NCBI GenBank assembly: GCA_050273025.1 | Contig: CP158635.1 | Coordinates: forward strand, 19,034,001 to 19,098,000 | Length of the DNA stretch: 64,000 nucleotides | Origin: Cenococcum geophilum | Taxonomy: Eukaryota | Direction of reading: 5' to 3' | Shown here: in pieces, positions 1 through 52,379 of the stretch | Layout: every line of letters starts with the position of its first letter | How positions within the stretch are numbered: the first letter of the stretch is position 1 | Program-made: the position numbers and the translations under genes | The notes under the pieces: model-generated | Told to the model about the DNA's origin: nothing | Databases searched by the model: none | What the model saw: the letters and a program-made list of their open reading frames with translations, nothing else

Positions 1-1125
1 CTATAAGAGAACACCGCGCGCCGCACTAGAACGCGAAGCGGCTGTTCTACTACTAGATATATACATTAATATAACTGCTATATAGAGAGTAGTTACAGTA
101 TAAGGCCACCTAGTAGAAGAAAAAATACGCCATACGCTAAAATGTATACGAGGAACGAGACTTATATAAGGAGTAAGGGCCCCTTAAAGGAGAGCCGCGC
201 CTAAGCATACTAGCTAGGAAGCTCTCTACCTACGAGCGGTAGAGAGAGAAAAGGAAATACGGGAACTACTAGCCTACTAGGCTGAGACCTAGCGCCATAC
301 CGGTAGAGCGCCATAACGGCGATAGAGGATAGGAGGCTACTAGCATAGATAGAGATCTACCACGCTAATCGTAAGATAGGCAGATCTTAAATAGAAACAA
401 TAATAGAAGGAGGTAGCGAAAACACAAGATATAGCCACATGGAATACCCCATAGTTAATATTAACTCTCCCCCTATATAAAGGACTAACAAAGGCAGAAT
501 CTACAGCCGCCTTCCTACTACAGATAGAGGTCCTAGGCCTAAATATATGGCTCATAAGCATCTATATTCTAAATACTATACCTTAATACACATGCGGATG
601 GCCCGCTTAGTTAGTACGCTATATACTGCTATTCTGCAGTTACCGCTTAGTAAGGGACTAGCTACTCGCTAGCGTAAGCATAAATAATATTACCTAGATA
701 CTCTTTATAAGTAGGGGCCTATATATAGCAGCAAAATAGCTTATAGGATAAGGAATCCTCTAGTAGTTCTAAACAGCACATAAGATCCAATAGGAGGATA
801 CTATAGGATATACCCCTTTCCAGCCCCTTAAGGACTGGTTACCCCCCGCCTAGCCACAGGCGGCACACTAGCAAATCGCCAGACCCTCCCTCTACTCCCT
901 CCCCCTAGATCTTCTAACATACCTAGGAAGTATGGTACGTAAGGCAGACTAAAAGACACAAGGATATACTAGCTAGGCGAAGGCGGAGCGCGTAAGACTA
1001 GCTAAGAGGAAATACCTAGGTTTTTTCCCCCTATGGGGACTTTTTTCCTATATAGATAGGTAGTAGCCTACATAGACCTAAAAAGGGACCGAATTGGGCA
1101 ATAAATAGAACAAATAATAATAATA
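1..1125 (+). mobile_element. 3' end of a RIP-mutated non-LTR retrotransposon (Tad1-like LINE)
   Basis: ~474-640 reads LYKGLTKAESTAAFLL..EVLGLN.WL then (C)TCGWPA(Q).VR(H)ILLFC, the C-terminal CCHC knuckle of fungal LINE ORF2 once RIP changes are reversed. Ends in aataaatagaacaaataataataat. Confidence 0.75.
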
Positions 1126-2084
1126 TTTAAAAAATATAATGCTTTGTAATTAAGGCTATATTATTAAAATATATATACTTTATAATCTAGTCCTAATATT
1201 TCAATTTTATAGAAGAAAAGTATACTAGATTTAAGGGTTATTATATTAAATAAAGTAGTAGAAAAATAAGTTATATATTATATTATTTATATTTTAATAC
1301 CAACTTAATTATATAGTGGCTTATATAACTATTAAAGATTAACAATTAAGCTTTATTACTAAACAATTTAGCTCTAGACAAGAATATAGTAATAAATTAC
1401 TTAAATATAATATAATAAAGTATTTTGCTCTAGCAGAACTACACTAAGTAAAGGTGCTTTTATTTAAAGACTGTAAGGAATTTAACCAATTAATTTAGAG
1501 TAAATATTATCTCTATAACAAATGCCTATTTATAATTATTTAGTAATAATATAAAAGTTTTCATTTTAAAGCCATTTAATATAGTGACTAAGTTTATATA
1601 TACGCTTAATATAACTCTAAATTAATTTATATTCTAGGTATATTTTAATTATATATTAACTTCCCTTTATGCTTTTTTATAAAGGTTATAGGATTTTAAT
1701 ATTTACTTTAGTTATACCCTATTAATTTATATACTTTCTATTACGTAAATAAAAATTTTATACAAAAATTTTATTTAAAATAGCTAATTACCTATATTTT
1801 GCTAAGGGGCTTAGCATTACTATTTTAATTAAAGATTTAGATTACAATTTTTTTTATAATTAGATATATAAGGGCATAAATCATTATAGGTCCTATTTAA
1901 GTGCCTAATTAGTAAGCAAGGCCCCCTATTTAGGAGTTAATTGCTATTTATACTAGTGTATAAATTATTATAGTAGTTTACCATTTAATTGATCGCTTAA
2001 AATTAACAAAGGGACACTATGTATAAGTATAGCTTCTCACGCAAACCTATAAGCACTGGATTTTAAATCTGTAATAGCTATTTA

Positions 2085-3102
2085 GTAGTAGTTCTTTAAT
2101 TAACGTCTAATACGGATCCTATCTAGGCCCACGCAGACTACTCCGTCATAGGGGGAAAACTTATAATTTATAGGAAGAAAACCCTGTAGTTGGGTTAGGG
2201 GAGGAAAAACCCTATAAGCCACCTTAGTAGGATAAAAAACCCTAATTTGCCATGTCCGTCCATAGCGGCGGCCCTACGGGCCTACGGCTATGTCCTGTCC
2301 TCCTTAGATGTTTAAACTCTTTAGGAACTACTGCTTTCTTCTCTAGCTTATCCTAGCTAGGGTTCACTACGTCCTAGCTAGGCCTTGCCGTTCGATTGCT
2401 GTATACTTATAGTTGTGTTCCGTATTTTAACCACCCCCTATATACTATCTCTTGTTAACTATTACTATATACGCTATGCCTCCCCCCCCCCTAAGGCCTA
2501 TTAAAGGCGTAAGGGGGATTTATCTATAAACCACTACTATACTAAAAGGCGAGCGGGATATATGTGCCTGAGTATCTTTTATACCTAGGCCCTAGTCACT
2601 AGGCCCTTACCAAGGGTTACTACTCCTTAAGAGGAGACAGGAAAACCGTACGGTGTTGTCTAGGCTGCTAGGTAGTATTTAATAGTTAATGGCGAGTGAC
2701 CGCATGCTCCGCGGGCGATCGCCCTGGGGGTTAGGAGGGGCCGTATATTTGCTCGTTACTCGTTTGTTCGCAATCGCTTGTTCGTTAATGTAAGAGGTCG
2801 TTGATGCTCTCTACTGGGGGTCAGGGGATGTTATCGAATGCCGCGCATCTATGTTGGATCGTATAGGTGCCTTAATAGGAGAATAGTGTTGCTGTTATCG
2901 TAAGGGGCACTCAGTGGTGGTTTTCGAGATCTCACTATCCCATGTAAAAACCTTTTACCACCGCCCATAATACCCATAACCACCACCACTAGGTCGTATC
3001 ACACGCTGTATGACGTCTCTGCGTTGGCTCTAAGTCTAAACTTCAAAGACTTAGGTTTGTAGCTATCACCACGTATAGGTGCAGAGTCCGTTTTCGACGG
3101 CC
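2085..3102 (-). mobile_element. Non-coding ~1.02-kb SINE-like retroposon, copy 1
   Basis: End-to-end reverse-complement homologue of 6883-7903. Flanked by TSD tgtaatagctattta (2070-2084) / tataatagctattta (3103-3117). Short TAC-repeat tail; no ORF. Confidence 0.88.
3017..3102 (-). ncRNA. Predicted HDV-like ribozyme at 5' end of retroposon copy 1 (P1 3' strand damaged by transitions)
   Basis: Minus strand: P1 GGCCGTC / GATAGCT (copy 2 has GACGGCT); P2 CTCTGC/GCAGAG; P3 ACC/GGT; L3 TATACGT; P4 CTAAGTCT/AGACTTAG; J4/2 CCAAC. Confidence 0.75.
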
Positions 3103-3797
3103 TATAATAGCTATTTATAAATTCTACTTAGTTTGGTCTATATTAATCAGCTAGTTATAGAGAAAATAGGTCGGTAAGCTAGAGAGTTAATTTTAGTAAG
3201 GCGACCGAGTTTCGGAGGTCCGAGTTTAACTATTTAAGGAGATATAGTCTATAACCCTTTTTTATAATTCCCTACGTTACTAATATATTACTTCTATATT
3301 TACCTTTAGGCTATTATATATAGTTAAGTAATTAATTAGGTAATTAAAGAGACTTATCTCTTAAGATTTAGTGTATTCCTATACTATATAATTGGCGTAG
3401 CTCTACTACCTAGTAAATAGGAAAGATACTTTATAATAGCATCTGTAGCTATTATACAATTATTAAAAACGTTTATAACGTTATTCTTTAATACCGTAGT
3501 ATCGTTTAGGTATAATTTAACCTATATACGTTAAATATTAACGTCTTAATTACCTTTCCCTGGCCGCGTAATTAGTTTTTATAAAAAAGTAATAGCTAGA
3601 TAGCTTATACGCATATTTCCTTTTTTTTAAAAAAAAATTGCGCTATTATAACGGAATTATATTAGTAAGATTGCAGCTATTTACTAAAAGGGTATTAGAT
3701 AGTAAAGTATAAAGACAACTTACTTATTAAGCTTAATCCTTTTTCTTAATACCTTACTTCCTATTATTAATCTTTACCTAATTTAGACATATCTCTA

Positions 3798-4760
3798 ATC
3801 TATACACACGCTCGCAGAGGTATATTCCAAATAATGTATTTATATTGTATTGGGGGGTGTAGGCCCAAGAAGAGGGTAATCTCGCCCAGCCTGCTGTATT
3901 GCATAGTAGGTTCCCTACTACTTAAGCAGTGGTAGATAATTACACACTTATTGCCCCCCTTAGGCCTACTGTAAGCCTAAAAGGCTGCAAAACTATCTAT
4001 AGGGTAGAGGGTGGGAAAGCGAAAAGCCGAAAGGCTAATTGTAATAGATATTAATGTTACTGTTTAAAGGAGGCGTAACTTCGCTTTAAATAGACATCTT
4101 TATCTATGCATACGCTCGCAGAGGTATATTCTAAATAATGTATTTATATTATATTGGGGGGTGTAGGCCCAAGGAGAGGGTAATCTCGCCTAGCCTGCTG
4201 TATTGCATAGTAGGTTCCCTACTGCTTAAGCAGTAGTAGATAATTACACACTTATTGCCCCAAATAACGCGTACCGTTAGAACCTAGCGGTATAAGGCCT
4301 GCGCCATAATAACTAATATGAATGTAGGAATATATGTCGTCTCTTTGCGCCCATAGGGTATTATTAATAGACCGTTTAAGTAACGTAGAATCTCTAGGTA
4401 GTATTGAAGGCTATTAACGACGACGACGTAGTAGGAAGGAGAAGGAGAGGAAGCTGGAAAGCGTTAATTTAAAACCTGTTAAAAACCCTGTGGGAAAAAT
4501 TGTTAGGAAAGACTACTTATTAACAGCTGTGGAAAGACGCGACGCGAAACTTCGCGATCCTCTAAGGGGTAAGACGTTTTATTGCGTCGACGACGTAGCG
4601 CCATACGGCATAGTATTATCGAGGCTATAAAACGAATGAATAACAAATTCTCTATTAAATAAGCCTTATTTTAAAGCGAAAAGCCAAAAGGCTGATTGTG
4701 ATAGATATTGATGTTGCTGTTTAGAGGAGGCGTAACTTCGCTTTGAATAGACATCTTTAT
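3798..4760 (-). mobile_element. Non-autonomous element with split direct repeats (Ngaro/PAT-like tyrosine-recombinase retroelement layout)
   Basis: Repeat Y (~160 bp) at 3798-3959 and 4102-4261; repeat X (~86 bp) at 4016-4101 and 4673-4758. The minus strand reads X-body-Y-X-spacer-Y. No ORF, no TSD. Confidence 0.55.
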
Positions 4761-6882
4761 ATATTATTAAGATTTTTTTTTCTATTATTAATTTAATATA
4801 CCTCTTTATTTTCTTACTAACTGCTCTTTTAAGCTAATTTCTTAGCGTATTTTAGCCCTACTGTAACGGCTTATATAAATGCCTCTAAACCAAAGCTAGT
4901 AAAATGCTATCTTATAAAGGTACTAAGCTAAGGAGAAGGAAAGGGGGTCGTTAGGGCTGGTGTAAATAAACAAGCAGCACAAGCCGCCAAGGCGCTAGCA
5001 GTAGGCGAGCTAATAGTAGAAAATAGTACTAGATAGTATGCGATAATATAAGATAGTATAATAGGTGGCAGAATATAGCAGAACTTGAGCAGAATTTGGC
5101 AGATAACGCGCTCTAGCGCCGTTATATTACCCCCCCCCTTTCTAAAAAAGCCTGCCTTTAGGCGTTATTTAAGCTCCCTATTATTCTTTAAATTGTTATA
5201 GTTATCTAACCCTTCTTTCTAGCACTTAATCTAGTTATTTAATTTATATGGTGGTTTAGGGAGGTTAGGGTAGGCTATATAAAAGTCCTGTAGCTTATAG
5301 GGAGAGTACTTAAAATTAGATATGGGGTACCATTCTAAGTCTTTATTGTGGCCTACCTAGCTTATATAATATTTTAAGACATTATGGTCCTTTTTAACTA
5401 CTAGGACTTCTTTAACTTCCTATTTCTTATTCTCTATAATCTAGATTAGCGGTAGGGGGTTATTATACTACCTAGGTAGTAGATTATTTATAGCCTTTTA
5501 TAGTTAGTCCGGGGAGAAAACGGGGTAAATCCTTATTAACTTTAGTAGCTTAACCTTAAAAGAGTATTTTACCCTTTAAAGAATCTTATATAGGCTAGCT
5601 ATTTAGTAGTTTAGCTTATAGCTTAGCCTCTAGGTTTTCTAGTTCTTTATTAACACCTATACTTTATCTCCTACTTAAAAGTCTACCTTATAATAATATC
5701 GGTTTATATTAGACTCCTTTTTCTTTTACGCCTTTTTTATAATTGCTTAAGCAGTCTCCTAGGCTCCGTATATTCTCTTAGCAAATACCTAGGCCTCTTT
5801 ATAGCTAAGGCGTTCGCGGGCTGTAGTGGGTTTAGTAGGCCTATCCTAATTAAAGGACGTTTATAGTGCATACCTATAGAGCAGTTTAAATGGCGATATT
5901 CTTATACTATTATAGAGGAGTATAAGCTGCGCGTAGTCTATTATAGGTAGTAGTTCCAACTAGTTATCCTAATAGTAGTCTATAAAGGGACGTGGTTGCT
6001 AGTTAAGGTACTAGTTTATAATCTTGGTTTAGCTATTGGTTTAAGGATAGAATATAGTAAAAAGCTTAATCTTAATCCTAAGGATACGGTAGAATTTGTT
6101 TTAGAAATCTAATATAAACTAGGGACTATAGAATTAATAGATGTTATTAATATAGAGGTAGGCTATATCCTTCGCCATTATAGTCTTAAAATAAGGGAGG
6201 GAGATAAATTACTTATATAGTCAGTTAATTACAATAAAGGCCGCATTATGGCCGTAGGCGTCCTTTAGAAACGACTTAAAGTCCATTATAATATATTGCT
6301 AAGGGCGTTTTAGAACTAGCAGCGGTTATAACTACCTAGGAGTTTAATCCCTAGGGGCATCTACGCGTCTATAGGCGTGGCAGTTTCTAATAAAATCGAT
6401 CTATATCTAATAAAAGTCCTCGCTAATAGTAATGGGGTATTAGTAGTTAGTAGGTCTTATCTTAACTAGGGTATACTATAGAGACTTAATAGTGGGCTTT
6501 ACGGATTAGCTCTATTTATAAGTTGTTAACATCTAGAACTATAAGCTATTCTTAGTATAAAAGTAGTCCTTCTATTTCTAAATTGGGGTTACCTTTTATA
6601 GCTTAGTCGCGGAGGGCCTTTAGAGAGTTGGCTATGCGGTTTATAGTTAGGATATAATTAATTAGCCCTATTAGTTTATTTAAGACTTCTTCTATAGATG
6701 CCAAATTATTCTATTTAGAGTCTAGCTCCTTAAGAATCTGCGAGTTAAGCTATTTAGGGTAAAAGAGGGCGCGCGTCCGGTATTAGGCTTTTAGCTTACC
6801 CTAAGGTCCTATATCTTATTCCCTTTAGGTTAATATATTAGCCTTAAAGTTTTACTTACTAGAATAATATATAATTATAAAA

Positions 6883-6967
6883 GGCCGTCGAAATCGGACT
6901 CTGCACCTATACGTGGTGACGGCTACGAACCTGGTCTTTGAAGTTCAGATCTAAAGCCAATGTAGAG
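6883..6967 (+). ncRNA. Predicted HDV-like ribozyme at 5' end of retroposon copy 2
   Basis: P1 GGCCGTC (6883-6889) / GACGGCT (6918-6924) with G1.U wobble; P2 CTCTGC (6899-6904) / GTAGAG (6962-6967); P3 ACC/GGT; 7-nt L3 TATACGT; P4 hairpin; J4/2 CCAAT. Confidence 0.8.
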
Positions 6968-7903
6968 ACGTCGCATAGCGTGCGGACAGGACCTAGTGGT
7001 GGTTATGGGCGTTAAGGGCGGTGGTGAAAATTTTTTGGATGGTGAGATCTTGAAAACCACTACTGTTAGCCCTCTATAATACGACGACTACTACACTATT
7101 CTATCTAGGGCACCTGTACGATCTAATATGGATGAGCGGTTTTCGATAACATCCCCAAAAAACCCCAATAGAAAGCATTGATGACCTTATATCAATGAAT
7201 AGACAAGCGCGAACGAACGAACGAACGAGTAAATATACGGCCCCTCCTAACCCCTAGGGCAATCGCCCGCGGAGCATGCGGTCACTTACTGTACTACCGT
7301 AATACTACTAAAAGGCAGCTGGATAACCCCGTACGGTTTTCCTTGTCTCCTCTTGACGGAGTGGTGCCCTTAGAGAGGGCCTAGTGACTAGGGCCTAGGC
7401 ATAAAAGATACCCAGATATATATACACACACATCCCGCTTTCGTCTTTCGGTATTAGGATGGTAGAACGGATGAATCCCCCTTACGCCTTCGATAGGCCT
7501 TAGGGGGGGGGAAGGCAAGGCGTATTAGCAATGGTTAATAAGAGATAGTATATAGGGGGTGGTTAAGATATGGGACATAACTACAAGCGTACGGCAATTA
7601 ATTAGCAAGGCCTAGCTAGGACGTAGTGAACCCTAGCTTTAGATAAGCTAGAGAAGGAAGCAGTGGTTCCCAAGGAGTTCAAAACATCTAAGGAGGAGGA
7701 CGTAGCTGTAGGCCTGCAGGGCCGCACTACGTGCAAATATGGCAATTTGGGGTTTTTCATCCGACTGAGGTGGCTTATAGGGTTTTTCCTTCCCCTAACT
7801 ACAGGGTTTTCTTCATGTAAACTATAAGTTTTCCCCCTATGACGGAGTAGTCTGCGTAGGCCTAGATAGGATCCGTATCAGACGTTAATTAAAGAGTTAC
7901 TAC
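6883..7903 (+). mobile_element. Non-coding ~1.02-kb SINE-like retroposon, copy 2, inserted in pol of element A
   Basis: TSD tatataattataaaa (6868-6882, 7904-7918). Removing it rejoins element A's RNase H-end reading frame. Ends ...atcagacgttaattaaagagttactac. Confidence 0.9.
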
Positions 7904-8674
7904 TATATAATTATAAAAAAGAATTAGGAGAGTATTTTAGCCTAGTAAGCTTATTATTTAGTAAGCTGCTTTATAGTTATAAAGTACTTTAGGGCTTTAT
8001 AATCTATATATACCTTAATCCGAAAGTTTGTACCTTTAAGCTCTATATACTATTAAAATAGCGATTAAATAATAGCTAGTATTTCTTTATTATATACCTT
8101 ATAGTTACACTTAGCTAGATCTATTATTTAAAAAAAAAAGGCAATAGGGTACTATTCGCCGTCTAGATATAACTATAATAGAATTCCCGATATAACTCTA
8201 TTAAAAGCGTCCGTTTTTAGCATTAACTTAAGGTCTAAGTTATAGTAATAAAGAATTAGAGAGAAGATAAGCCGATCTTATAACTCTTTAAAGGCTTCTA
8301 TATAGTTATTATTAAAGATAAAAGGCGTATCTTTCCGGGTAAGTTATATAAGAGGCCTTACTATAACTTTATAGTTATGGATAAACTAGTAATAGAAATT
8401 ATAAAACCTAAGAAAGGATTAAATCCCTTTTACTATATAAGGGAGCTTCTAGTTATAGATTACCTTTACCTTCTTAGGGTTAACTTTAATTCCTTCTATA
8501 GTTATAATAAACTTAAGGTACTTTATACGTTTTACCCTAAACTTATATTTCTTAATATTAACTTATAAGCCTATATTCTATAGTCTCTCTAGGACCTTCT
8601 TAATATAAACTTAATATTTAAGTTTATTATCTAAGTATATAAGAATGTTATCTAAGTATACTATACAGAATTTA

Positions 8675-11600
8675 TGTTACGAACGCTTTAAGTACAATGT
8701 TACGACTACTTGGAGAAGAGACGGAAGAAGCTAGTTGGTTAATTTAGGCACGGTCTAGAATGGAGCCGATAGAACTATGTGACGAGAAATGGTAACTAAG
8801 GTTATATAATATGCTACGTATTAAACAAGAGGCATAGGAGGAACTTACGTACCTTACGTATAAGACGTATATTACGTATAAGAAGGATTTTATAGGAGTA
8901 CGGTTGTGTATTTAAGGACCCTTAGTCCCTACCTAGATAGTTCCTTTTTTATAGTGATTCTTAGAATACAATTAGAGTTAATCTATTAGGCAACCACTTC
9001 ACCAGTTATTATTACGTTATTAACTTTTATACTTACATTTCCTACACGCCTAGCCTATTAATGAGCCTATTGTAGTTCCTACTATAAGGTTCTGTTACAC
9101 AATTACTACCTAATTATAGTATTAATATAAGAAGTCGAACAATATACCACTAAAAGTAGCCACCACAACGCTATTAACGGCGGCAACTATATTAAGGTTA
9201 GGTAACAACACTAGTATAGCAGACACTAACTTATAGCAATCTATAACGGTCGGATAACTATAAGAGATAGTTAACTAGCTAATAGAAAATAATACAACGT
9301 TGGAAAATAGGATTAATGGAATAGGCGCCGCAAAGGTTAAGTTACTATTAATTAAAAGATTCTCAGGAGAGAAATTAAAGCTTAAAGGATTCCTTATATA
9401 AATACACTTTAAGGTTACATAAGAGGGAGCAAAGCTAGTAACACCTATGGATTAAATAGCGTATACAGGATTGTTCTTAATAGGAAGAGCACTTAAATAG
9501 TTTAAGCCTTACCTTATAATAATCTAGGTAAATGGAATAACAACAACAAACTAAAAGGTATAGTTTATGTTCTTAAGCTAGAACGGATTTATAGAGTGAC
9601 TTATACAAATATTTAGAGACCTGGAGGCAGTAACCACGGCGGAAAGAAAACTCTAAGATATTACGTAATAAACCTTAGCAATTAAGTATATAATATAGTT
9701 CCAGACGTTAGTAATATAAGTAGAGTAGAATAATAGGGCGCTTATAGCATAGTATAAACAGGGACTTAAGGCTAAAGTTTAAGATGTAATTATCCTAATA
9801 GAAGATATAGACACCCTAAGGGAACTAATAGATTAAGCAATTAAAATTAACAATTAGATCTACTAAAGGGAATAGACTAAGAGAGGCTAAAATAGAGTTC
9901 TATAGTTATATAAGGCGTAGAGTACGCAATAACTAAAGCTAAGTTAAAAACTATAGTATGGCGCAAAGCTAATAAACCTAAGTAGTACTAAAGAAGCCTA
10001 TAAGAGATAGAGTAAACGACTATAGAAACCCAGAGGATAAGGATTAAGTAATTAAAGGTCCAAGGAGCAGAGGCTAAATTAAGGATCTTAATAGCAGAAG
10101 ATATTCAGGCGGACTCTACAGTAAGAAAAATGGTTTAAAGAGGGAGCTTATATAAATTGCGGAAAATAAGGTTATTATATTAGGGACTATAGAAGTGGGT
10201 AGAGTTACTATATAGTAAAAGGGACAAGACCAGTAGACGATATACACGTATAGAGGGATAATAATATACTGCAAGGAACAAAAGAATATTTAATTAAAAG
10301 TTTTGCGTTTTGTTATAATAACGCATACCAAATTTATAAGGACGCTAAGTACGGCGTAAGCTATTAGCTATAGAAGCTAAGTTTATTAAAATATTAAGGA
10401 ACTAATAAACTAGTTTATAGATTGAATATTAAGGACGATAAATTTAATATAGGCGAAACATTTCGTAATAATAAGGTAATAAAGGCGGTTTACTAAGAAT
10501 ACATAGCTATTAGAGATATTATATAAGAGGTAAAGAATAATTCCACTATAGAATAGGGAATATTAGTAGGGATTAAAACCCCACTAGATATAATATCTAT
10601 CGCTTTATAAAACGCAAGAGAAGTAGGATAGTAAGCCACTTTGGCACTTAATAAAGGCAAAAGGCCAAAAGCTTAAGACTCTTAAGACGAGATATGAGAC
10701 GACTAAGATTTTTAAGATAAGATGAGGCAAGCTTAAGGACCTACGACGGACAATAACCAATGGAGCAGAGTAACGGCTTAGTTTAGTAATATACGAATAA
10801 GCTTAGGACGAAGTTTCCTAAAAGCATAAGACTCTCGAGATAAGATAAATGAGATTCAAGACTCTTAAAACAAGATAAGAACACTAAGTAAGCCTAATTA
10901 GACTAAGGCTAGAGCAAAGCTTAAGATAGAAGCAAGCTTAGGATTAAGAATCTAAAGGGGTTAAGAATTCGGGGTACGAATAAGGACGCCTATAAAAAAG
11001 AGGCAAGAAGCTCCCTTATAGATTAGAGAATCTGCAGCATAAACAGTAACTAGACTGGGAGATAAATATATAGACTTAGAAGACTTACTAAAGGAATATA
11101 GTGTTTGGCCTAAAGATCGGAAGGATAATACCAAGATTAGGAAGTAAGAAGACTTTAAGGATTAGTCTATAAGACGCAAACTAAAAGAAACCATAGAAGA
11201 GTTTAGATAAAGAATTATCACATAGCAAGAATAGAAACTAGATAAGAGATCTAGCATATTAGGACGTATAAGGGACAGAGCGCTAGTATAAAGAATTACT
11301 AATAGGCTAAGAGCAGGCATACTAAGAGCTAAGTAGCTTACTAAACTAGAAGATAAAAAGGATCTAGGGATCCCTATTAGGTTTAAAGAACGATATATAA
11401 AGGGCTGTTATAACGTAGTAATAAGAAGATACTTCCTTACGGACAAGCCGTATATACTCTAGCAGGTATATTAAAAGTGGTATAGGCAACGACATAATAA
11501 TAAGTGGGAAGATTTCTATATATAGTTAGACGAAAAAGTTATCTAGGACTACCTAATTATAGAGAAGGCTATAACTTATATTAAAGGAGCCTTAATTATA

Positions 11601-33619: not shown

Positions 33620-36351
33620 TTCTACTAGTATTAAGTTATTACCTATTTGGCGGCGCTTTCTACTTGACATTATAGAGGCGAATAGGGTAGATATATTTTT
33701 TATTAATTATAGAGCTGGTTCCGCCGATTAGTTTGACAGTATTTCTGAGACAAGAGCTGTTATGGGGTAGAGATTAATTTTGTTAAAGAAAATAACTGTG
33801 GGATGATGATCAATCTGCCCCCGAAATTCGTGCAGAGGAAAGGCCACGCATCCAGGGGGCCAGGCGCGCGTGGATGGCGAGGAACCGCGCGTCTTCCCTA
33901 GGAACTCGCCAAGTCACGTGATGATATCTGGAAAGGCTCACTAGCAGCCGCATTTTTTGTGCAGGTAAACATCGTAGTCCCCGCACTCCCGCCCCCATAG
34001 TGAGACCCCGCTAAGCAGAGCACTGTTGCACTAGATGCTCGCCATTTTGCCTGTCGTAGCTAGATCCCACCCTTTGTGCTGGAAGCTTGACCCCTCCGTT
34101 TGCAATGTCCTCTCGATTGGCTTGCAACTAGGCAGCTGCCTAACTATCCTCATCGTGGCTGTGAGGGAGAACGCTTGGCCGGCCGGCCGCCGAACCCGCA
34201 ACACTTTTTCCGTCTGCTCCAAAGTCAGCAACCGGAGCGGTTCTCAGCCTTCAACTACCTACATTAAACCAGCGCGAGAGAGCAGAACAGCTAAAGTCCC
34301 GGAACCCGATCCCAGCCTGCACTTCATCACCAATCACAAGGATGGTTTACTATTGCGCGACTTGATTGTCCGGGCGGCGGCGTTCAATGGCTGTGGGAAG
34401 CTGCCCATGGACCGCTGGCTATCAGATGGTGCTAATCCGGAGCCCGAACACGTCATAGAGGCAGGGTTCCTCGGGCATCAACAAACGACGCTGGTCTAAC
34501 TAAACTTCTGTAGACCTGAAGCATGGCGCTGACTGTTACTGAACAGCTTTCGTACCACTGATGATATTCGATTAATTTTTGACCGGAGTCCAGGATTGGG
34601 GGAGCGGTGAAGATGGTGAGGGAGCAGGTTGTTGTGGCGCTGCACATTGGTGGTTCGGATATTATGCAAGGCTTGTGGCCTTCTCGCGGCATGGAAACGG
34701 CATGGAAACGGCATTAGCGTTACGAAAACTTGTCTTGAAAGCATCTGCAGGTGTTGTTTCCAATTGGGAATTTAGACGACGGGAAGATATGGAAAGTGCA
34801 CGGAATTGAAGAACCCTCGATCACTACATTGATAATTGATAATTGATCATCGATCATTGATATCATCAATACCGTAACCCATCTCAGCACCCGGCGCGTT
34901 GACCAATCCAGCTTCGGACATACCTACGTCTCCCAACCTTGTATTCTTTTCGATAGCATGGACTACAATCACAATGGCATACGCGCTACTGCAAATCGAA
35001 TTCTTCGTGCCTCTAGTGGTGCGCCTAATGCTCTACATCCCGCCCAGCGCCGGGTTTCCGGCATTTGATACAAGCCTAGCTGTTGAATTGAAAGCACAAG
35101 GCGATGTCGCGCTTCTAGGATCGTATGGGAGGAAGAAATTTTCACGAGTGGTGGCATGGAGCTGTTTCAACGTGTTACTGTCAGTCGCATTGCAAGCCGG
35201 GATTGAGTGGCCAGTCATAGATGTGCTGAAGCTGCGGAGCATACTGGTGATCAAAGGCAGCGTTTGGAGCTTCAACCATCTCCTGAATCCATGGACCATG
35301 GCTAAGAGCATTGCCGAAGGATTAATCCTTCAAAACGCGAGTGTCGGCAATTAGAATCTACTGATGTGTACTGATCTGGATTTACTTTTCGGTTTCTCCA
35401 ATATTACATCTGCCTCTACCTCCTCCACCGCCTTAGCTCCACCTACCTCACCCGCTGGCATTTGGCCTGGCAACACAGCATCCGGGCCCCCTACTCCTTC
35501 GTCGCGAACTACAACTACCCAATATGTTTTCTTCTGCACCACTTCCTTCCTCTCTACCTCCCAGCCTACCTCTTCCGATTCCATATAATGACATACCTCA
35601 TCCTGCTCGCAATCTTCTAACTCGAAGAGATGTTTACATACTCGGGCTACAATGTGCTACCATCCACTATCATGCTGCGAGGTATGGCGCGAAGAACCGA
35701 TGTGCATATGATGAGCGTTGGGAAAGGGAACTATGCGCCAATTAGCGTGCTAGACTAGTGCCACGGGACAACGTTGGACGCGGACGTTATGGACGATGTT
35801 AGGGATGAAATGGAGAAGCATGATGTGCAGGAGAGGGCAGGAAAAGCGATGGATGATATGGGAACGGGGCAAAAAAGTGAGAGCAAGGAAGGGCGGGGAA
35901 AGAAATGAATGTTAGAGGGGGGCGAGTAAGTGATTAGATTCTAGTGGAATGTTCTTATGCATTGATAATTGATTTGGTGTTTCCTGAAATGATACTCCTC
36001 AATATTATCAACTCAATTTCGGAACACCGCGTCACATGCGCTTAGGATGTGGTGCAGTTAAAGTAAGGCCCGCTAATCACCGTTAGTACTCCGAAGATTT
36101 TACTCTTCTAATACGTTAACATTATTTTGATGTTGCTGTAAATTCATGAGACCAAGTCTATGCCATCTGCCCTATGACGCGTTTTCGGGTGGTGGTTGAA
36201 TTTGCTTGCTTGATACAAAATCGTATAGAAATGCAAACCGAGCCCTCCATGGAAATTTGCCGTGCCAGTACTAAAACTCTGCTTTTACGGCCGCAGCATG
36301 CCGATGACACTCTTCAGCCCCTGCAATAAACGCCCAACCTCAATGATCCAT

Positions 36352-37189
36352 TCAGAAAACCATCATGTGCGGCCTGTCAGCCTTGCGCAGGCTGAAGGAC
36401 GAGCTCAGGTAAGGAAGTAGCATGGGTTCCTTCTTGATGTTGGCCAACAGAGCCTTGTCGACGGACTTCTGGTCCTCCACACGGCTGCTCGCGATCTCCT
36501 TCTTCTGTCGAACCAATCAGTAACCAATATCCAGACGTTTCCTCTCGAAGAGGGCTGGCAACTGACCTCTGGCTTCTCGCCCTGCTTGAAGAAAGCCTCC
36601 TCTCCCGTCTTCTTGCTCTTCTTGTCCTTGGTGAAGTAGCCATCCTCGCTAACCTTCTCCAAAACCTTTTCATCCACACCCTTCAAATCCACAGTGGTCG
36701 AGGTTGCAATGACATATCGAGCATTGACCCTCCGTAGAGGAACGCCGTTGACTTTGAAGGGGCCGGTGACGAGGAGCACACCCTGGGGAAGGTGCTTAAG
36801 GAGGATAACGCGCTTGCCGCGGAAGCGACCAGCCAGGAGGATCAGAACGGAACCAGGTTGCAGTGACGGACGGGGCTTCGCTGGTCGGAGAGATTTGCGG
36901 GCCTAGATAAGTAGTAAATGTCAGTGTCTTGCGTCACGAAATTGCTTCAGACTGGAAGTCGAGATGAGAGAACTCCTGCGCTTAATTGCAGAACTGACAA
37001 CGCCAATTCCGGCCAGCACTTCCTCTAGTCTCTATGCGCTCTCCCCCTTCACTAGGTTAATCGTACCTTCTTGGGCGCGCTCTCGTCCTCAGCGGGATAA
37101 TACTTGTTGGCCTTCTGGGAGTGGTGAGGTATCGACCGCTCGCCCTTGCCGAACGACTTGGTTACCGGCTGTTCCTGCTTCGCCGACAT
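36352..37189 (-). CDS. RPL6: 60S ribosomal protein L6 (eL6); exons 37189-37067, 36902-36567, 36504-36352
   Basis: [24 protein letters not shown]...[27 protein letters not shown] and C-terminal [23 protein letters not shown] introns. Confidence 0.97.
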
Positions 37190-37436
37190 GTCGAATTGTG
37201 ATGCAGGAAGAATCCGTGGGAGTTGGGTGGGAGGCTTAGTTAGTAGTCGCTTGGTCGTCGAAGTCTGTGGTCTTTTTCGAAATCTCGTGTGTGGATATTC
37301 GGATTAACTAGCGTGCCGAGTATTCAAGCGCCAAGAATCATCAAAGCTCCCGTGGCTGTCAACTCCTCTATCCAGTTCCACTATCTCACCTTTTCACAAC
37401 TAAACGAATACCGCTGTCTATATTCTATAAGCCAAC

Positions 37437-39004
37437 ATGTCGATACAGCCTCTCATCACATTTAAGGCAGGTAAATGTGAGCTTGAGGTTTGTTACTGGA
37501 TCATCTATCCCGATTTACTCGATTTACTGATCTATCGTAGCCCGGCAACCCATCAAAAGTCAAAGCTGTTCCCACGCCTGGTTACATCTACCTTTATAAT
37601 GATGGTATTATGGCATCTCCAAGTTGCACTGTATTAATCTCACAAGTTTACAGAGCTTGTTCACTTCTGCTGGCGGCCACGGTCCGCTCCCGCATCCGAC
37701 CCCGAGCTTGACCTTCTCATGATTCCCGGGGATGGAAGCTTTCTCCCATACACAGGTCCCGATGGTGGATCAGACTCAGATGATCTAAAATCCCCCACAA
37801 ACGGTCGCATTTTCGTCCTAAAGTTCTCTTCAAGCTCCCAGCGACATCTTTTCTGGCTGCAGTCCAAGACTCAACACCCCCAAGGCAATCCAAGCTGGTT
37901 CAGCGAGCGGGACCAGAAGTTAGGACAGATAGTGGATATGCTATTGAGTGGCGAAGAGGTAGATGTTGCGTATGAGCTCCGGGATATCAGAAATCGCCGC
38001 GGGTCTGGCCGACCTGATGACGATGATGAAACAATGGAGGATGTAGAAGGTACTGATCATGCCCCAGATCGCCACCGACAAGGTAGTGGTGGGGCTGGTC
38101 CAGGTGCCACAGGCGGGGACATAAGAGAAGAAGGCGAGGAATCTAGGGAAGGTGGTGCTGATGGTGGCCGAGCGTAGGTTATCATTTTCAACGTCGCAAC
38201 GCTGCCGGTTTATCTGTGAAAGTGAGGGAGGCGCTAGAAAATGGTCAAAATCGGTGAGGCGTTATGGGTTCACCAACACTGCATAAGGTCATCAAACTTG
38301 GCCTGAGTGATTCAGCAAGGCAGATATGTAACTGTAAACACATCAAATAACGATTGGGTTTAGCCTTCTCCAGCGACACGACGTCTGATCTATATCTGCT
38401 GGCACCCGCTCAATTACAGACGAAAATATGCTAACTTGTTTTTAGTGCTTTCGCAGGTACGACAGATGCTGCGGCAATTGTACAAAATTTCCTCAACTCA
38501 TTGAAAAGCGGGAGCCTCTCCGGCAGCGCTCAACAACAGGGCAAACCATTCACGACACTACCAGATCTACTTCCATCGTCAACTACTATCCCAGTCATTG
38601 AAGCCGCGAACTCGACCTTCATCGACGCATTACTCTCTCACTTACCACCAACACTTCTCCTTCTCGCACAAGAAATCGACGAGCTTTCCGAAGTCGACCC
38701 TGATTCCGAAACCGCACAGGCTGCTATTCAAGCCTTAAGTACGGACCAGAAAAAGGACATCCTCAAACGAGTTCTCCGCTCTCCGCAACTACACCAGAGT
38801 CTTGGCAGCTTGACTGTTGCTTTACGGGATGGCGGGCTGCCAACCGTTAGCGAGGCGCTAGAGATCAAAGTTGAAAATGGTGGATACACACGAAATGGCG
38901 GAATGCCACTTGGGGCGGGCGAAGCAGTGGAGGCCTTTTTAGAAGGTGTCAAAAAGACTGTTCAGGAAGACAAATCAGGAGACAGCAGGATGGACATCGG
39001 CTAG
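37437..39004 (+). CDS. RPN13: Proteasome ubiquitin receptor Rpn13/ADRM1; exons 37437-37487, 37541-37604, 37654-38173, 38446-39004
   Basis: PLITFKAGKC...PGYIYLY...LVHFCWRPR...NGRIFVLKFSSSSQRHLFWLQ (Pru domain) and C-terminal LRSPQLHQSLGSLTVAL. Splice sites keep frame. Confidence 0.92.
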
Positions 39005-39517
39005 AGCGCTTTCCTGCTGTTGAGTGATGTATGAGAAACACATGCCGGCTAGAATTGATGCATGAACAATAAAAAGAATCAAAACTATAGAGGCTAGCTT
39101 CAGACGCCACTGGATATTGCTTAACTCATATCACTTGAGGCTTGCATATTTCCTAGAGTCCAAATATTCGAAATTTCGCTTAGGCCAAAAGCAACCAGTA
39201 CGAGGAGGCACTCCCAAGAGCATATGACCTAGAATCTTGGGGATGCATTTCTTAGCTGGCTTTAAACGTATTATGCATAGGATTTGCAGCAGAATAGACA
39301 TGCAGTATACACTGCTTGGATTCGTCCTGAAAGTATCTCAAGTCAACCATCGCCGTTTTGCTAACACTTCCATCTAAGAGCTCTAATACCCAATGCGCCC
39401 TAAAGCCTTTACCTGTCACTTCACCTCTCTAGCTTATCCTCAAGGAGTCCTTACATCACACTTGACTATTATTCCCAATATTGCCGTTAGTCTCAGTTGC
39501 CCCCCTCTCCGCGTCAG

Positions 39518-39870
39518 TCATTTAAGTGAAAGCAAACCCGGGAAGCCTTTTTTTTTTAGGTCTCTGCACCCATTACTTCAAAGCAACCCTTGCAGCGCAT
39601 TCAAAGAGCTCTTGCACTCCAACATTAGTCTTCATCGAGGTTTCAAAGTTTACCATGGCGCCGATTCGTTTAGAAAACGCTTCGCCTTATTACACTCTAA
39701 TGATTGCATCGGTTTTGTATTTGAAGTAGACTCAGATCATGAATTCTCCTTGATTGCTTTTTTGTTGAACTTTGATAGCTCTGTTATTTGTTCCTACCCA
39801 TAGCGAAGCTCGCTCTCGCAGCCCACCAGAATCTTAGGGACTTAGCCGCAGTAAAGTAATTAACTTCGTC
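39518..39870 (-). pseudogene. Rho-family small GTPase pseudogene fragment (C-terminal half)
   Basis: Minus strand: VPKILVGCESELRYG*EQITELSKFNKKAI ... *GEAFSKRIGAMVNFETSMKTNVGVQELFECAARVALK*, resembling the Rho G4/G5 region. Contains in-frame stops. Confidence 0.7.
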
Positions 39871-40838
39871 TGTTCACTTTCAATACTATTAGCTCTGAAA
39901 TCACATGTCTACTCTGAGCGGGTCTCTCTAGCATCCAGTTACCACGGCGGCGGCATCGCGGAATTGCTTCAGCTGCATCCCTATCTTTTTCAAGGCGGCG
40001 TCAAAGAAGTGTCAAGAAATGGGAGTCCGGTGGGTGGAGCGTAGAATTTGCCTTGGATCAAACTGAGCGGAGACGGTTTCTCTTTTGGTTCACGCTTGAA
40101 GGAAGCAGTGTTAGCTTGTGAATCAACGAGACTCTTTCTAGCACCCGTGGAGGTTTTTGAAGCTCTCCGCTATGCGTTAACACCCAAGGGTGAGCAATTT
40201 CCCAGCACACAATGCCACGTAATTAAAGTTTCCGTTAGGATGAATTACTAGCATGAAAAGATGCCTCAGAGCTTGGGCTAGAGATACTGAATCAAAGCAT
40301 TGTTGATCGTAGAACCATGCATTCAGAAAGAAATGCCTGGACGCTATGAGCTATATTTCTATTGCATCTTAGTGCTAGGGGATTTACCTATCTAAACATG
40401 GGAGAGGTTGCAATATCGAGATCAAGCGTTAAGAGGATGAAGGTAAAAAACCATTTGAGTGTTTGAAGCTGCCAATGAATCGGTGTTAGAGATTTCGATG
40501 AGATCCACTGCCGGCCCAATCTCATTGGCTAGAATCCTCCGTTATATGCTTCTTTGACCAAATCGCAGTAATAAGAATGGGTGAACAGGCAAAAGTATAG
40601 CGGAATAGATAAGATGGTTGCACATTATCAGCATTGAATGGTTTCTTTTCCACAGTCTTCGGGCTAAACCGCTTCGGGCTCCTCGACGCCAAGTGCAACA
40701 TCCAACCTCATTCCAACGGACCTCCCCTCCACCATCAACTATCTATTTCGACCCAGGATTCCGCGACTCTACCCAAAAGGGGTTTGTCAACACTCTCTAC
40801 TCCACTTCCCTTTTCTCCCCTACCTACCGTTACCGCCA

Positions 40839-41383
40839 ATGCCTCTTCTACACCCTAGCCGCTGCGCCCAGCGCGTCACCGCCTCCTTCCCATCCCGTAC
40901 GTCCGCATCGACATCTCTTGCGTTCCGCCGGTCAATTTCGTCATCGCGATCGTTACGCTCGGCTTCAGGCTCGCACGAAGATCATTATGATCCCCCATCC
41001 GGATGGCTATGGGGCGTGCCGCCAGGCCAGAAATACCAGAAGGAGGGTTGGGAAAACATTTGGTTCTGGGGTTTCTGTGGAAGCTTAGGGCTTGGAGTTA
41101 TTGCATATGCTTATAAGCCAGACACAAGGTATGTCTAAATCTACTTCCCAGAAGGACATCGATTGGACAAGGCGAGCTACGATGCGGTCACAGCTAGTAT
41201 AATGTTAATAGGATCCTTTGCGGAGGCATTGCGTAGTCATTAAGAAAATTCAATCAGGCTGATAAAGCAAATAGCATACAAACATGGGCTCTTGAAGAAG
41301 CTCGAAGGCGATTGGAAGCCGAGGGAATACTTACGGATCCAGGGTTGACGAAGGGTGAAGTGAAGGCACAGAACACTGAGTAG
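40839..41383 (+). CDS. NDUFB11: NADH:ubiquinone oxidoreductase ESSS subunit (NDUFB11 homologue); exons 40839-41128, 41275-41383
   Basis: R/S-rich mitochondrial presequence, then YDPPSGWLWGVPPGQKYQKEGWE, a TM helix, and YKPDTSIQTWALEEARRRLE. Confidence 0.9.
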
Positions 41384-41977
41384 GTCCGAGTGGTCAACGA
41401 GCGACTGAATTCAGCGGATTGAAATTAGGAAATCCATTCTTGACCACCTTGGTCATTGTCCTTTACCAATGGTCATTTTGGACGAGGAATGGGCGGATTC
41501 ATTGTACATATAGTGGAGCGGACAAGCAAGATTTCCTTTGTACCTGATCATAGAGCGTGGATGGCAGTTCCGTCATCCATATTAAGCAATACCATCACTT
41601 TGCTTGTTGCTTCTTTCCACTCCCATTACATCATTGCGCATCTCCTAAGCCCTGAGCTCCATACGGTTTCGAGTTGCCTGTTCAGATATTGGTCAGTCTT
41701 ATATTCCTTAGTCTATATCGAAATTTACCTGTTTTGGTGGCGGTACATGTCCAGCTCCTCTCGAAATGCTTCAATCTACCAAGGAACCCGCGAAAATGAT
41801 AATTGCGCGAGTTAGGGTTCCACACAGCACATAGCGCGACAACTAACGTTAATGCGGTTCATGGAAGCCGATTCAGCGCCAGACCCGCTTCAGTCATTCA
41901 TGTATATTCGGCAACTGTCATCTCCAGACTCGCATGCTCGATCATGCAAAGCTGATTTAATGGGGAGTTGACTTACC

Positions 41978-42792
41978 GGCTTGGAAATTTCCGCTGAAGA
42001 GCGTTGGAACGTTCCCACCAAGGCTGCCTTCGGCTTTGGCAATGTCTTTACCCTCAATCCAGTCCATCCAAGCATTAACATGGTAGTGGTCGTACACAAT
42101 GTTATCTTCGACAGTTGGTCCGGCGGAGGTGATTTCGGGGAAGTAACCCTCAGAAAGACCTTTACCGATTGGGCCTCATCAAATCATATGCCGGGTGCTT
42201 GTCGGTGTATGCAGTCTTGTACCCAGCGCCCACTACTACTTCAAAGGCGGTATTGACGCCGGTACGCATGTGCGGATAGATGTTTGTACACTGGCCATTA
42301 ATGATAGCTTGAGATAGATTTGCCGGGTTGATCCCGCCAGAGAAGAGCTCCGTGCTATTGTAATCGATACTCTCGTCGTATACAACTGTGAAAGGCATTA
42401 GAGATTGGTTGGCCAAGCTACTAGCTCCATATACCTTCGGCGCCAGGAGCTCCTTCGCATCCGCTGCTGGGAGCATAGAAGGTCCTGTCATAAGTGTCGT
42501 CGTACCAGACTCCAGTAGTGTGGGGATTGGCACCAGTATATTGCGCTAGAGACCCCGGATATGAGTCTGAAGGGCCAGTAGTCTAGGCATCAGTGTACCT
42601 ATATCCGGTCTTCAGCAATGCAGATATGTTAGAAGGTCCGCGAGCGAGCCACTTGTCCGGATCGCTGTTGTGCAGCCCATCCACGCTGAAAACAACTACA
42701 TATTTGGATTTGCAGCCTTCGTCGTCATCGCGCCGAGTGGCGACCTGGTTGGTGAGTGCAAGGGAGAAAAGAATGGAATTGAAGCCCCGCAT
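41978..42792 (-). pseudogene. Secreted type I phosphodiesterase / nucleotide pyrophosphatase (alkaline phosphatase superfamily) pseudogene
   Basis: Signal peptide, VVVFSVDGLH, in-frame TAG (42583-42585), TTGPSDSYPG...TGVWYDDTYDR, an intron, TAYTDKHPAYD, a frameshift near 42170, then GKGLSEGYFPEI...VPTLFSGNFQA. Remainder not found. Confidence 0.8.
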
Positions 42793-43694
42793 GGTGCTAA
42801 TTGTATCAAGCAAGCGATGTCTAGGTGTAACTATAGTTGTGTTTTACAACTATGTCCTAAAGCACCCTTCATATACACACCGGCTGTCATAGCTCCCAAG
42901 CTTTCTCAAGCTGTTCCCGGCCCATGGTCCAGGCACAAGGAACCGGTGACGTTCTACATATCTCGTTACCTGCCTTCTTAAGGTACTTAATTAAAGCCTA
43001 GAAGAATTGGCCAACAGGAGTAGCCGAGTTTGACATTGCTGCCCCACGATTGCATACTGATGGCTAGCTTGTTTCCCCATCTCGTTCTTCCTGGTTTATA
43101 GTATCCCTGCACAGTACGCTCCCTAGCGCCCCGTGCAGTTTTAAGGCGCACATAAAACGCAGTGTCCTAATAATAAAATTTTAACCCATCCTAGAGATCT
43201 TCAAGGGTTGATAAACAATCCTGTCCTTATCCACTAAACGACCTGGAAAATGCTTTAGCATATCCACATTTCCGCACGGAAAACTTTTCCTGAATATCTT
43301 TTGGGCACTCTTCCTTTGCACTTAGCCATCCTCGACGTCGCCACTGATGCGGCTTCTCTAGGCTCACCTCTTGTATTTTCTTTCGCATGAGTATCTGATA
43401 AAAGCACCAGCGAGCTGTCTGGGGACATAGTGTAGAATCAGAAGACCAGGTTGAAGATCCGCGGAGGAATCCGCGGGTTTCCGTGGTCTGGGTTTAAGTT
43501 ATGTCAGAACCCTGACTCGCAAGTATGCCTGATTATTCGCGGTTTGTGACGATTAATACTGAACAACATCAACTTCGCCTACGAAATGATTTTCCATCAC
43601 ACCAAACACGAAAAGATTCCTACGCCCAAGATCCAAAGTTGGCCGTGGTCTAACTATTACTCAACTCAGTGCCTTAAGCTGAACCACCAGGTGC

Positions 43695-45901: not shown

Positions 45902-45997
45902 CAATACTATTCAACCGCCACAAGAATCGCTTTGAATTTCAGTGAAATGCAAACATAAAATTGAAACCTAACCTCGTGTCAACCGCCCAAGAACCAA

Positions 45998-46847
45998 TCA
46001 CTTCAATGCCTCCACAAAGAGTTCCCTCATTCCCTTAAGGAAACCTGCCAGGTCTCGTGTCTCATTTAGCCTATCCAGTACCCTCTCTACCTCCTCTCTC
46101 TCCACCTTAGGGCGAAATTCGCCTACTCTGTATTCCCTCTCACTTGTATCAAGCTCGAACCATGCTTCCCAGTCCCACTCTCTCTCGCTCACATTCGTAT
46201 AAATAAACTTCAGTCGATCCTGCTGACCTACCCCTTCAATCCTCAAACTTAAGTAACTTTCCCAGAAGTCCAATTCCGGTTCATTGTACCTGGCCTGTCC
46301 GTCGAGGTAGCGGCGGTGCTTAAGCTGCGCTTCGCGGCGCGCAGAGACAGCCTTCTGCACTTCAGATATTTGTGCCTTGAGAGCATCGCGGTTGGAGAGG
46401 CGTTCATCGCGTTGTGAGGTAAGGGCTGCGATTGCGGAGTGCATTTCTGCAGTTTCTGCGGACTCTTTGGCCAGTGTTTGCGCATGCGTAGTAGATTTAA
46501 GAGTTAGGATTTCTATATTACGCTTCTTCATGCGCTGGTCCTCTGTCAAAATGTGTCAATGATTTATTGTTATCACCTGATCCTCCGAATAGGAACCTAT
46601 TAGCAGATATATGCGCACCTTGCAGTTCAGCCACGTTCATCCTAAACTGGTTGCGCTCTTCTAGGACGCGCTTGCGCCCTTTTTCAATGAAGTCATCAAA
46701 TCGCGCGGTGAAGCGTGCCATGCGATCGCGAAGGTCCTCGAAACCGAAGTTAATGCTGGGAAGGGTATCGGCCATTGAGGGCACGTCGGCGGAGAGGGGT
46801 GGACGCATCGCGCTGGTTGACAGTGAGGGTTCGAACATTGTGGCCAT
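45998..46847 (-). CDS. SPC25: Kinetochore Ndc80-complex subunit Spc25; exons 46847-46619, 46542-45998
   Basis: LPSINFGFEDLRDRMARFT, a coiled coil, then NEPELDFWESYLSLRIEG...LKFIYT...RDLAGFLKGMRELF (RWD-like). Confidence 0.88.
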
Positions 46848-47188
46848 GATGGTAAATAGTGCGGAGTGGTTTGAGACAGGTTTTCTGTGGCGACTGCAAT
46901 GAGAACCGTTGATCTCGATGTCGTGTGAATTGGTGTTCTGCGGAGGAGCGATTCAGGATCCAGACTTGTTGTTGACATTTCGGTTGTCAGGAGTATCAAT
47001 ATCGGAGCTTGCTGCGAAAAGCCGACGGTCACGTGAATGTTTATCAAGATTTCGCCTAGAGATTTCAAACTTCCATACTTTCACGCTCCCAATTCTGGAA
47101 TACGCTGGACTTACATATTGGTTGGATCTTCTCATTATGCTTTGTAACTTGTCTATTATTGTACAAAAAACCCTTGAATTGAAACCGA

Positions 47189-52068: not shown

Positions 52069-52379
52069 GGGTTTTCATCGGAGACTTCTAGTCATCCTGC
52101 ATATGTAGAAGTCTCCGCCAGGCCGTGCACGCTGCCAAGGCATGCACGGTCCAACCCCACCAAATCGGATTCAAAATTGAGGTTATTCACAGCCGTACAA
52201 ATGGTCAAATTGATCAAAATGCTGGTGTATAAGGCTTTAAAGATTGCTGAATCAGCTTATACCTCGCGGAATTAGTCTGCATGGACCTTAATTGGGACCG
52301 CATCAGACGTTAATCAATAGTGGTTAAGTTTCCTTATGATAAATAGTAACAATTTTAACCTCTTCTGTAGCCAATATTA

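Follow-up and report, generated by a model that had tools for sequence, protein, structure and literature searches.

What sets the exact 5′ end of a short non-coding repeat is the question raised by two related repeats lying near the beginning of a 64,000-nucleotide (nt) stretch of the Cenococcum geophilum genome (NCBI GenBank assembly GCA_050273025.1, contig CP158635.1, positions 19,034,001 to 19,098,000 of the forward strand), which is referred to as the window and whose own numbering is used below. A preliminary description of the locus had proposed that the common 5′ end of the two repeats is fixed by ribozyme cleavage, rather than by random truncation during target-primed reverse transcription, and that the family contains old subfamilies. 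Based on the comparison of the two copies with their relatives in metagenome contigs, we consider it likely that the window repeats are independent target-primed insertions of a ~1-kb non-autonomous retroposon of the class without long terminal repeats (non-LTR), headed by a ribozyme resembling that of hepatitis delta virus (HDV), in a fungal genome affected by repeat-induced point mutation (RIP). The predicted ribozyme head most likely sets the exact start of the element. The uniform endpoints and the comparative support for the fold uphold this part of the earlier proposal, and it is self-cleavage itself, together with the transcribing polymerase and the partner long interspersed nuclear element (LINE), that we infer rather than observe.

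The two insertions and their family

Copy 1 occupies 2085..3102 on the minus strand (1018 bp; subfamily cluster 3) and copy 2 occupies 6883..7903 on the plus strand (1021 bp; subfamily cluster 4), with positions and lengths as first described. GGCCGTC forms the first bases of both, and both end in TAC repeats, the (TAC)n tails lying at 2085..2104 (minus strand) and 7884..7903 (plus strand); a 25-nt probe from the 5′ end matched only these two copies in the window, and nothing in 100 shuffles. Each copy is flanked by a 15-bp target-site duplication (TSD) of its own. That of copy 1 reads TATAATAGCTATTTA on the plus strand at 3103..3117, on the 5′ side of the element, and its partner at 2070..2084 on the 3′ side matches it at 14 of 15 positions, with a single G/A transition; the 5′ TSD of copy 2, TATATAATTATAAAA at 6868..6882, recurs identically (15/15) at 7904..7918. 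The host sequences of the two insertions are different repeats, and an uninterrupted paralogue of the copy 2 host repeat, in which the 15-bp target is present once, represents the empty site (metagenome locus L030, ~4860-4910). The copies share 80.1% identity (blastn), and their pairwise alignment, short flanks included, comprises 834 identical columns, 141 transitions, 57 transversions and 43 gap columns. Thus, the earlier statements that the copies have different TSDs and hosts and differ beyond what RIP would explain are borne out.

To survey the family, metagenome contigs were searched with a 43-nt probe that matches the 3′ terminus of the element and was coded as purines and pyrimidines, thereby being insensitive to RIP transitions; a 3′ probe does not select for any 5′ end. 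It identified at least 121 related loci in the metagenome contigs, 80 of them with 3-kb flanks, and gave no match in viral contigs; the copy counts below rest on the matches listed among these at least 121 loci. Using blastn with both window copies, 129 element pieces were found among the matches listed, of which 54 represent full-length copies, 60 run off the end of a contig or locus, two have the 5′ but not the 3′ end, and 13 stop before nt 1. The last comprise three pieces of a distinct repeat, family B, two pieces too near the locus edge, and eight 5′-deficient pieces, namely one true truncation (L089, a 200-nt copy with a 14-bp TSD), three without a visible TSD and four tail-only pieces of 54-100 nt. 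Therefore, among the matches listed, 54 of the 62 copies with a judgeable 5′ side are full length and the 5′-truncated ones are a minority (8/62). Together with the two window copies, the 54 form a set of 56 full-length copies, in which the starting G is shared by 55, with a T in its place in L009. The 5′ endpoints are thus not scattered, in agreement with the fixed start that had been proposed.

The TSDs define the same first base. An exact flanking repeat of at least 6 bp was found for 50 of the 56 full-length copies, and in 46 of the 56 the TSD is exact, measures 9-18 bp (most often 14-15 bp) and lies directly against nt 1; TA forms the first bases of 36 of these 46 TSDs. At least three of the six copies lacking an exact repeat have TSDs that, judged by eye, were spoiled by single transitions. 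At the other end, the full-length copies carry 0-5 terminal TAC units. Additionally, no open reading frame (ORF) of at least 80 amino acids lies within window positions 1-10000, and no reading frame conserved across the subfamilies was found. In several cluster-4 copies (L032, L048 and L012, for example) the frame from element nt 3 is open for 87-143 codons, with no ATG before codon ~82; this frame, which is broken by the indels that other subfamilies carry in the P4 segment described below, is probably non-coding. The family therefore has the features of a non-autonomous non-LTR retroposon similar to the short internally deleted elements (SIDEs), with variable TSDs, a simple-repeat tail, neither LTRs nor terminal inverted repeats (TIRs), no coding capacity and occasional 5′ truncation, and the anatomy of its TSDs and tail is that of target-primed reverse transcription.

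A different origin is invited by the arrangement of the window copies, which are inverted, 3.8 kb apart, and have their 5′ ends pointing toward each other. They could be read as the inverted arms of one composite or TIR DNA element spanning 2085-7903, an outcome that the preliminary description had itself considered, or as solo LTRs or repeats of another class. However, one element would not account for a separate and different 15-bp TSD around each copy, nor for the empty-site paralogue of copy 2, and the 56 full-length copies have 5′ flanks unrelated to one another in all 56 cases, with a single copy in most metagenome loci. No locus in which inverted copies enclose this 3.8-kb segment within a single outer TSD was seen among the loci listed. 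The element contains no inverted repeats and no terminal direct repeats, and TSDs varying from 9 to 18 bp combined with a (TAC)n tail fit neither a TIR nor an LTR element. An origin of this kind is extremely improbable. The element does hold one internal direct repeat, which is not terminal and is the only one in it, of 23 nt at 74% identity (7343-7365 and 7829-7851); this mid-element degenerate copy of the sequence preceding the 3′ hairpin may point to an origin of the element by fusion of two units.

Clustering of the 56 full-length copies by transversions only gave four groups of 37, 12, 4 and 3 members, of which the second largest contains copy 1 and the largest copy 2, so that the two window copies belong to different members of the old subfamilies previously suggested. 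Measured against the majority base, C-to-T changes occur at 25.7% of CpA sites and 3.9% of CpC sites, and G-to-A changes at 26.6% of TpG sites, a CpA/TpG bias that is the signature of RIP.

Several observations concern the surroundings of the copies. The window is AT-rich (~30-35% GC) and free of ORFs at 1-34000 and 53000-64000, which flank a gene island of 50% GC at 34000-52000; at 10-16 kb and 57-64 kb, long stretches in which GC and AT skew are both strong are probably large RIP-degraded retroelements. At one metagenome locus (L006:2041-5924), three copies (+, -, +) lie within 4 kb as a pile-up in an AT-rich repeat, two with their own exact TSD and the third with an imperfect one, and two of the three carry a second type of tail. 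Many contigs begin or end at element nt ~897-921 (L011, L022, L027, L042, L054, L064, L068, L074, L087, L091, L093, L097, L107 and L117); these ends look like assembly breaks, and suggest that the last ~100 nt are common to more repeat families than the body of the element is.

The predicted HDV-like fold at nt 1

For element nt 1-86, a structure can be drawn that corresponds to the canonical nested double pseudoknot of HDV-like ribozymes, with helices in the order P1, P2, P3, P1.1 and P4, which places the candidate ribozyme at 3016..3102 on the minus strand in copy 1 (element nt 1-87) and at 6883..6968 on the plus strand in copy 2. P1 is formed by nt 1-7 (GGCCGUC) and 36-42 (GACGGCU), with G1-U as the closing pair; J1/2 has 9 nt, P2 pairs 17-22 with 81-86, or with ~80-85 in copy 2, and P3 pairs 23-25 with 33-35 around the 7-nt loop L3 (26-32, UGUACGU). 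P1.1, consisting of G27-C44 and U28-A43, forms in the copies without RIP hits, and P4 is a hairpin of up to 8 bp, continuous over 8 bp in the cluster-3 copies, with AGCCAAC as J4/2. In copy 1 the 3′ strand of P1 reads GAUAGCU instead of GACGGCU, two P1 pairs having been lost because of RIP. HDV ribozymes cut directly before the first base of P1, which is usually a G closing the helix with a U, so that the ribozyme is retained entire on the 3′ product. Their L3 loop spans 7 nt, in which U occupies position 1 and G position 6, and a cytosine of J4/2 is catalytic. Across all 58 aligned sequences of this family there is no variation at C76, A78 or A79 of J4/2 or at U26 of L3; G31 is kept in at least 90% of them, and the G1-U closing pair is present in 56 of 57 distinct rows. 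C76 is the putative catalytic base.

The alignment of 58 heads (57 distinct rows) supports the 26 pairs of this drawing. Paired cells amount to 95.8% of 1434, versus 27.9-43.4% in six controls with slid partners, and none of 500 shuffles came up to the real alignment in paired fraction, in covariation score or in the count of doubly changed cells. Unguided, RNAalifold, which cannot draw pseudoknots, recovered P2 and the outer part of P4. Changes between subfamilies are the informative ones, because those within a subfamily date from after insertion and have been free of selection. Pair 5:39 of P1 is G-C in 47 rows and C-G in three, those of the subfamily starting with GGTCCTC (3 copies), and this swap is two transversions, which is beyond what RIP produces. 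The same subfamily has a P4 of different sequence that still forms a hairpin, the P4 pairs 52:74 and 55:73 alternate between A-U and G-C, and in further copies P4 is 6-11 nt shorter and forms a hairpin nonetheless.

The head also stands out in the conservation profile, as one of the three least variable parts at transversion sites, together with a central block and the last 60 nt. Transversion diversity is 0.006-0.017 over nt 1-100, 0.001 at nt 351-400 and 0.011 at nt 951-1000, and the remaining 50-nt bins have a median of ~0.03 and a maximum of 0.135. The most conserved internal part is a central block at element nt ~350-405 (7231..7287 on the plus strand in copy 2, with the copy 1 counterpart near 2700-2755), which is GC-rich, contains several short palindromes, and is a possible candidate for an internal promoter or a protein-binding site.

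Searches with models of known ribozymes and with a descriptor place the likeness at the same base. When 4227 Rfam families were compared with L012, a copy that RIP has damaged less, the two top-scoring ones were both HDV-like, namely drz-agam-1 (RF01787; 14.7 bits, E 0.97, below its gathering threshold of 37) and HDV-F-prausnitzii (RF02682; 13.7 bits, E 1.8, below its gathering threshold of 44), and both alignments span the full model with model position 1 at element nt 1. The element is not a member of either family, and shares with them a similar P3/L3 core (ACC-U..ACGU-GGU-GA). A scored HDV descriptor, whose odds are generous as it was written after the sequence had been seen, matched at nt 1 in 46 of the 56 full-length copies; its score, compared with shuffles, replaced an earlier relaxed version that was too permissive. 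Across the window it matched 222 of 128,000 positions, and in 40 block-shuffled windows 7751 of 5.12 million positions (1.5e-3 per position). Copies 1 and 2 score 24 and 20, and the top score of 26 was reached by eight copies and by two shuffled positions (4e-7 per position). The coincidence of the fold with the TSD-defined start is not chance.

A model built from the heads of the family (R1) scores copy 1 at 108.6 bits and copy 2 at 103.6 bits, both copies being in its training set. Its sole new match in the 447 kb of related loci, at L047:1609-1724 (+), has 25.5 bits (E ~4e-4) with default filters and 19.4 bits with filters off. This sequence is a divergent HDV-like candidate, with a P1 of wholly different sequence (GACUCUA/UAGAGCC, including one A-C mismatch), L3 UCCACGC, the same CUCUG in P2, and a long P4; it is single-copy in the 447 kb examined and lies in GC-rich non-RIP sequence that begins ~210 nt upstream.

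Several points weigh against a catalytic head. No Rfam model matched the window at its gathering threshold, and nothing HDV-like was found at E up to 10 within 1900-8100; another copy, L051, likewise gave no HDV-like Rfam match, and the L012 scores lie far under gathering. Covariation is thin, with changes on both sides in 5 of 26 pairs, a count equalled by 72 of 500 shuffles, and it is thin because the family is young, with noise added by RIP. Many of the A-U/G-C switches are RIP-type transitions, which are possible without selection, and the GGTCCTC subfamily retains one mismatch or bulge in P1, at U3. The fold was drawn from the same sequences on which it was evaluated, so the slid-partner control and the descriptor are partly circular. 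Additionally, most short retroposons are full length irrespective of how their 5′ end arises, and the near-equal length of two 1-kb copies, on which the first proposal had drawn, is weak evidence alone.

These points would suit precise transcription initiation as the cause of the uniform 5′ end, in which case the HDV-like drawing would be non-catalytic, a relic or a structure with another RNA role such as protein binding. DNA uniform at nt 1 is also expected from a promoter start at nt 1, and a uniform start abutted by the TSD is exactly the pattern of a start site; the conserved palindromic central block could be a promoter element, and a promoter in the head is made plausible by the 77-nt head of L1Tc, which is reported to be both promoter and ribozyme (PMC3383444). 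However, no DNA promoter needs RNA pairing, and apparently compensatory changes are seen here, in the G-C to C-G swap of P1 and in the replaced P4 that is still a hairpin, so that cleavage is favoured over a start site. Five helices, the U and G of L3 and the J4/2 cytosine follow one another in HDV order from nt 1, at the background rates given above for any match and for the best score, and a start site alone would not lead the two best Rfam matches to be both HDV-like and both registered at nt 1. Cleavage is also favoured by the hallmarks of the fold being in register with nt 1 together with the low transversion diversity of the head. An initiation site with a non-catalytic fold is rather unlikely in our judgement, and a dual promoter-ribozyme head is possible by analogy with the Pr77 head of L1Tc.

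The 3′ module, transcription and the proposed LINE partner

The last ~60 nt of the element form a hairpin with an outer stem GUCUG/CAGAC and an inner GC-rich stem, followed by GUUAA and the tail. In copy 2 this hairpin (GUCUG...CAGAC) folds at 7850..7883 on the plus strand, and in copy 1 its counterpart (GUCUG...UAGAC), a presumed reverse-transcriptase recognition element, lies at 2105..2138 on the minus strand. In a second type of tail, the outer stem is changed in a compensatory way to GUCCG/CGGAC, and AAGCAAUGAAU and TA-rich repeats form the end; this type occurs on four ribozyme-headed copies (two in L006, one each in L034 and L075). The second hairpin and tail are also carried by family B, a distinct ~1.1-kb non-coding repeat with a GGGTATAAGCG-like start, found at L035:1342-2453, L066:3066-4217, L032:4977-6043 and L010:5478-6043, in which the ribozyme model gave no match. 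Because the ribozyme head has two tails and the second tail also sits on family B, the modules appear interchangeable, and these sequences suggest that heads and tails have been exchanged as units. A lone fragment resembling the 3′ hairpin module lies at 52273..52322 on the plus strand, with the same outer stem and another inner stem, and matches the family over 45 nt at 78% identity (E 4e-4, blastn). It is situated at the edge of the GC-rich gene island, and upstream of it are the host genes for Rrn6 and a DEAH-type helicase, not a LINE.

The 3′ hairpin is probably a handle for the reverse transcriptase of a LINE. An autonomous LINE carrying the family tail was found neither in the window nor in the 447 kb of related loci, which counts against this part of the proposal. 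A Pfam search of 26 ORFs from the related loci gave host genes and one gag of an LTR element only; upstream of two tail-only pieces, with stops read as X, L031 holds a hAT fragment (Pfam) and L063 an LTR-element-like pol sequence without a Pfam match, and Pfam recovered no reverse transcriptase there.

The short, non-coding and abundant copies, and a 3′ module common to other families as in pairs of a short interspersed nuclear element (SINE) and a LINE, would also agree with a classical SINE transcribed by RNA polymerase III (Pol III), with a head derived from tRNA, 5S or 7SL RNA and a 5′ end at the Pol III start. However, the family has no tRNA-like head, ARAGORN finding no tRNA in window positions 1500-8500, there is no Rfam match at gathering in the window, and 1 kb is long for a Pol III SINE. 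Each copy also has 5-10 sense-strand runs of at least four T, the first near nt 150 and T5-T6 runs included, at which Pol III is expected to terminate. Pol III transcription of the element is unlikely because of these runs, and a classical Pol III SINE as a whole is highly unlikely.

We propose, with a slight inclination toward it, that an HDV-like head has taken the place that a Pol III promoter head has in SINEs, and that the element spreads through read-through transcription, a cut at G1, and a LINE reverse transcriptase borrowed by way of the shared 3′ hairpin. First, the element would be transcribed within a longer RNA, probably by RNA polymerase II (Pol II), starting either at a neighbouring promoter, by read-through, or at an internal one. 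Upon folding, the ribozyme would cut just 5′ of G1, by which all upstream sequence would be removed. The LINE enzyme could then nick an AT-rich target, usually at TA, with priming on the (TAC)n tail, and reverse transcription to the first base of the RNA would leave a TSD of 9-18 bp abutting G1.

Known ribozyme-headed elements and implications

The closest likeness in design is to the R2 SIDEs, which are described as short, internally deleted, non-autonomous derivatives of R2 (PMC3414825). Like this family, they are non-coding derivatives of a non-LTR element with a 5′ HDV-like head; the SIDE ribozyme cuts the co-transcript and so gives a precise 5′ end, and their 3′ end binds the protein of the autonomous element for target-primed reverse transcription, a role in which the 3′ module described here may resemble it. 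However, R2 and its SIDEs are insect elements, site-specific in 28S rDNA and released from an rRNA co-transcript, whereas this family is dispersed in a fungus, in AT-rich repeats and near genes, and differs further in having TSDs of 9-18 bp and a (TAC)n tail.

HDV-like ribozyme heads are also reported for the trypanosomatid elements L1Tc/NARTc, RIME and SIDER1/SIDER2, which are marked by the Pr77 hallmark (PMC3185411, PMC3383444, PMC4035085). These elements are dispersed like this family, and their first ~77-96 nt form an HDV-like ribozyme that there cleaves at +1; the LINE is much less numerous than the non-autonomous members, and the head may double as an internal promoter. They have poly(A) tails and lie in polycistronic Pol II units, whereas the tail here is (TAC)n, and the predicted head follows the canonical HDV layout (P1 of 7 bp, L3 of 7 nt); in sequence, this family is unrelated to the trypanosomatid elements.

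Within fungi, Li and Breaker (2017) catalogued 230 copies of HDV variants from 26 species of filamentous ascomycetes, with 'widely variable gene associations', and demonstrated for two of them cleavage at the base of P1 (PMC5640933). In that variant the cleavage-site pair is C-G, P4 contains an E-loop, and an additional nucleotide separates P2 from P3 (PMC5640933); the family described here differs in all three, with G1-U, an ordinary P4 hairpin, and P2 column 23 followed directly by P3 column 24. The word 'retrotransposon' is absent from the main text (PMC5640933), and some of the catalogued members may sit in retroposons. In the papers searched, the fungal HDV-class ribozymes had not been linked with mobile elements. 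No fungal retrotransposon with an HDV-like ribozyme was found in the full-text literature searched, which comprised freely accessible papers and not subscription papers or repeat databases.

The mechanism proposed here has already been established in insects and trypanosomatids, and the value of the present family therefore lies in range and annotation rather than in principle. The R1 head model together with the 3′ hairpin provides an annotation route for such repeats, and the family points toward a LINE with a (TAC)n tail. Additionally, its RIP-mutated members offer a natural test set of ribozyme variants. Provided that the literature searched is representative, an HDV-like ribozyme associated with a retrotransposon would here be described in fungi for the first time. 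If the reading proposed here is true, it could account for the variable gene associations of the fungal HDV-class ribozymes, and the 5′ trimming of non-LTR retrotransposons by a ribozyme would extend to another kingdom, the fungi.

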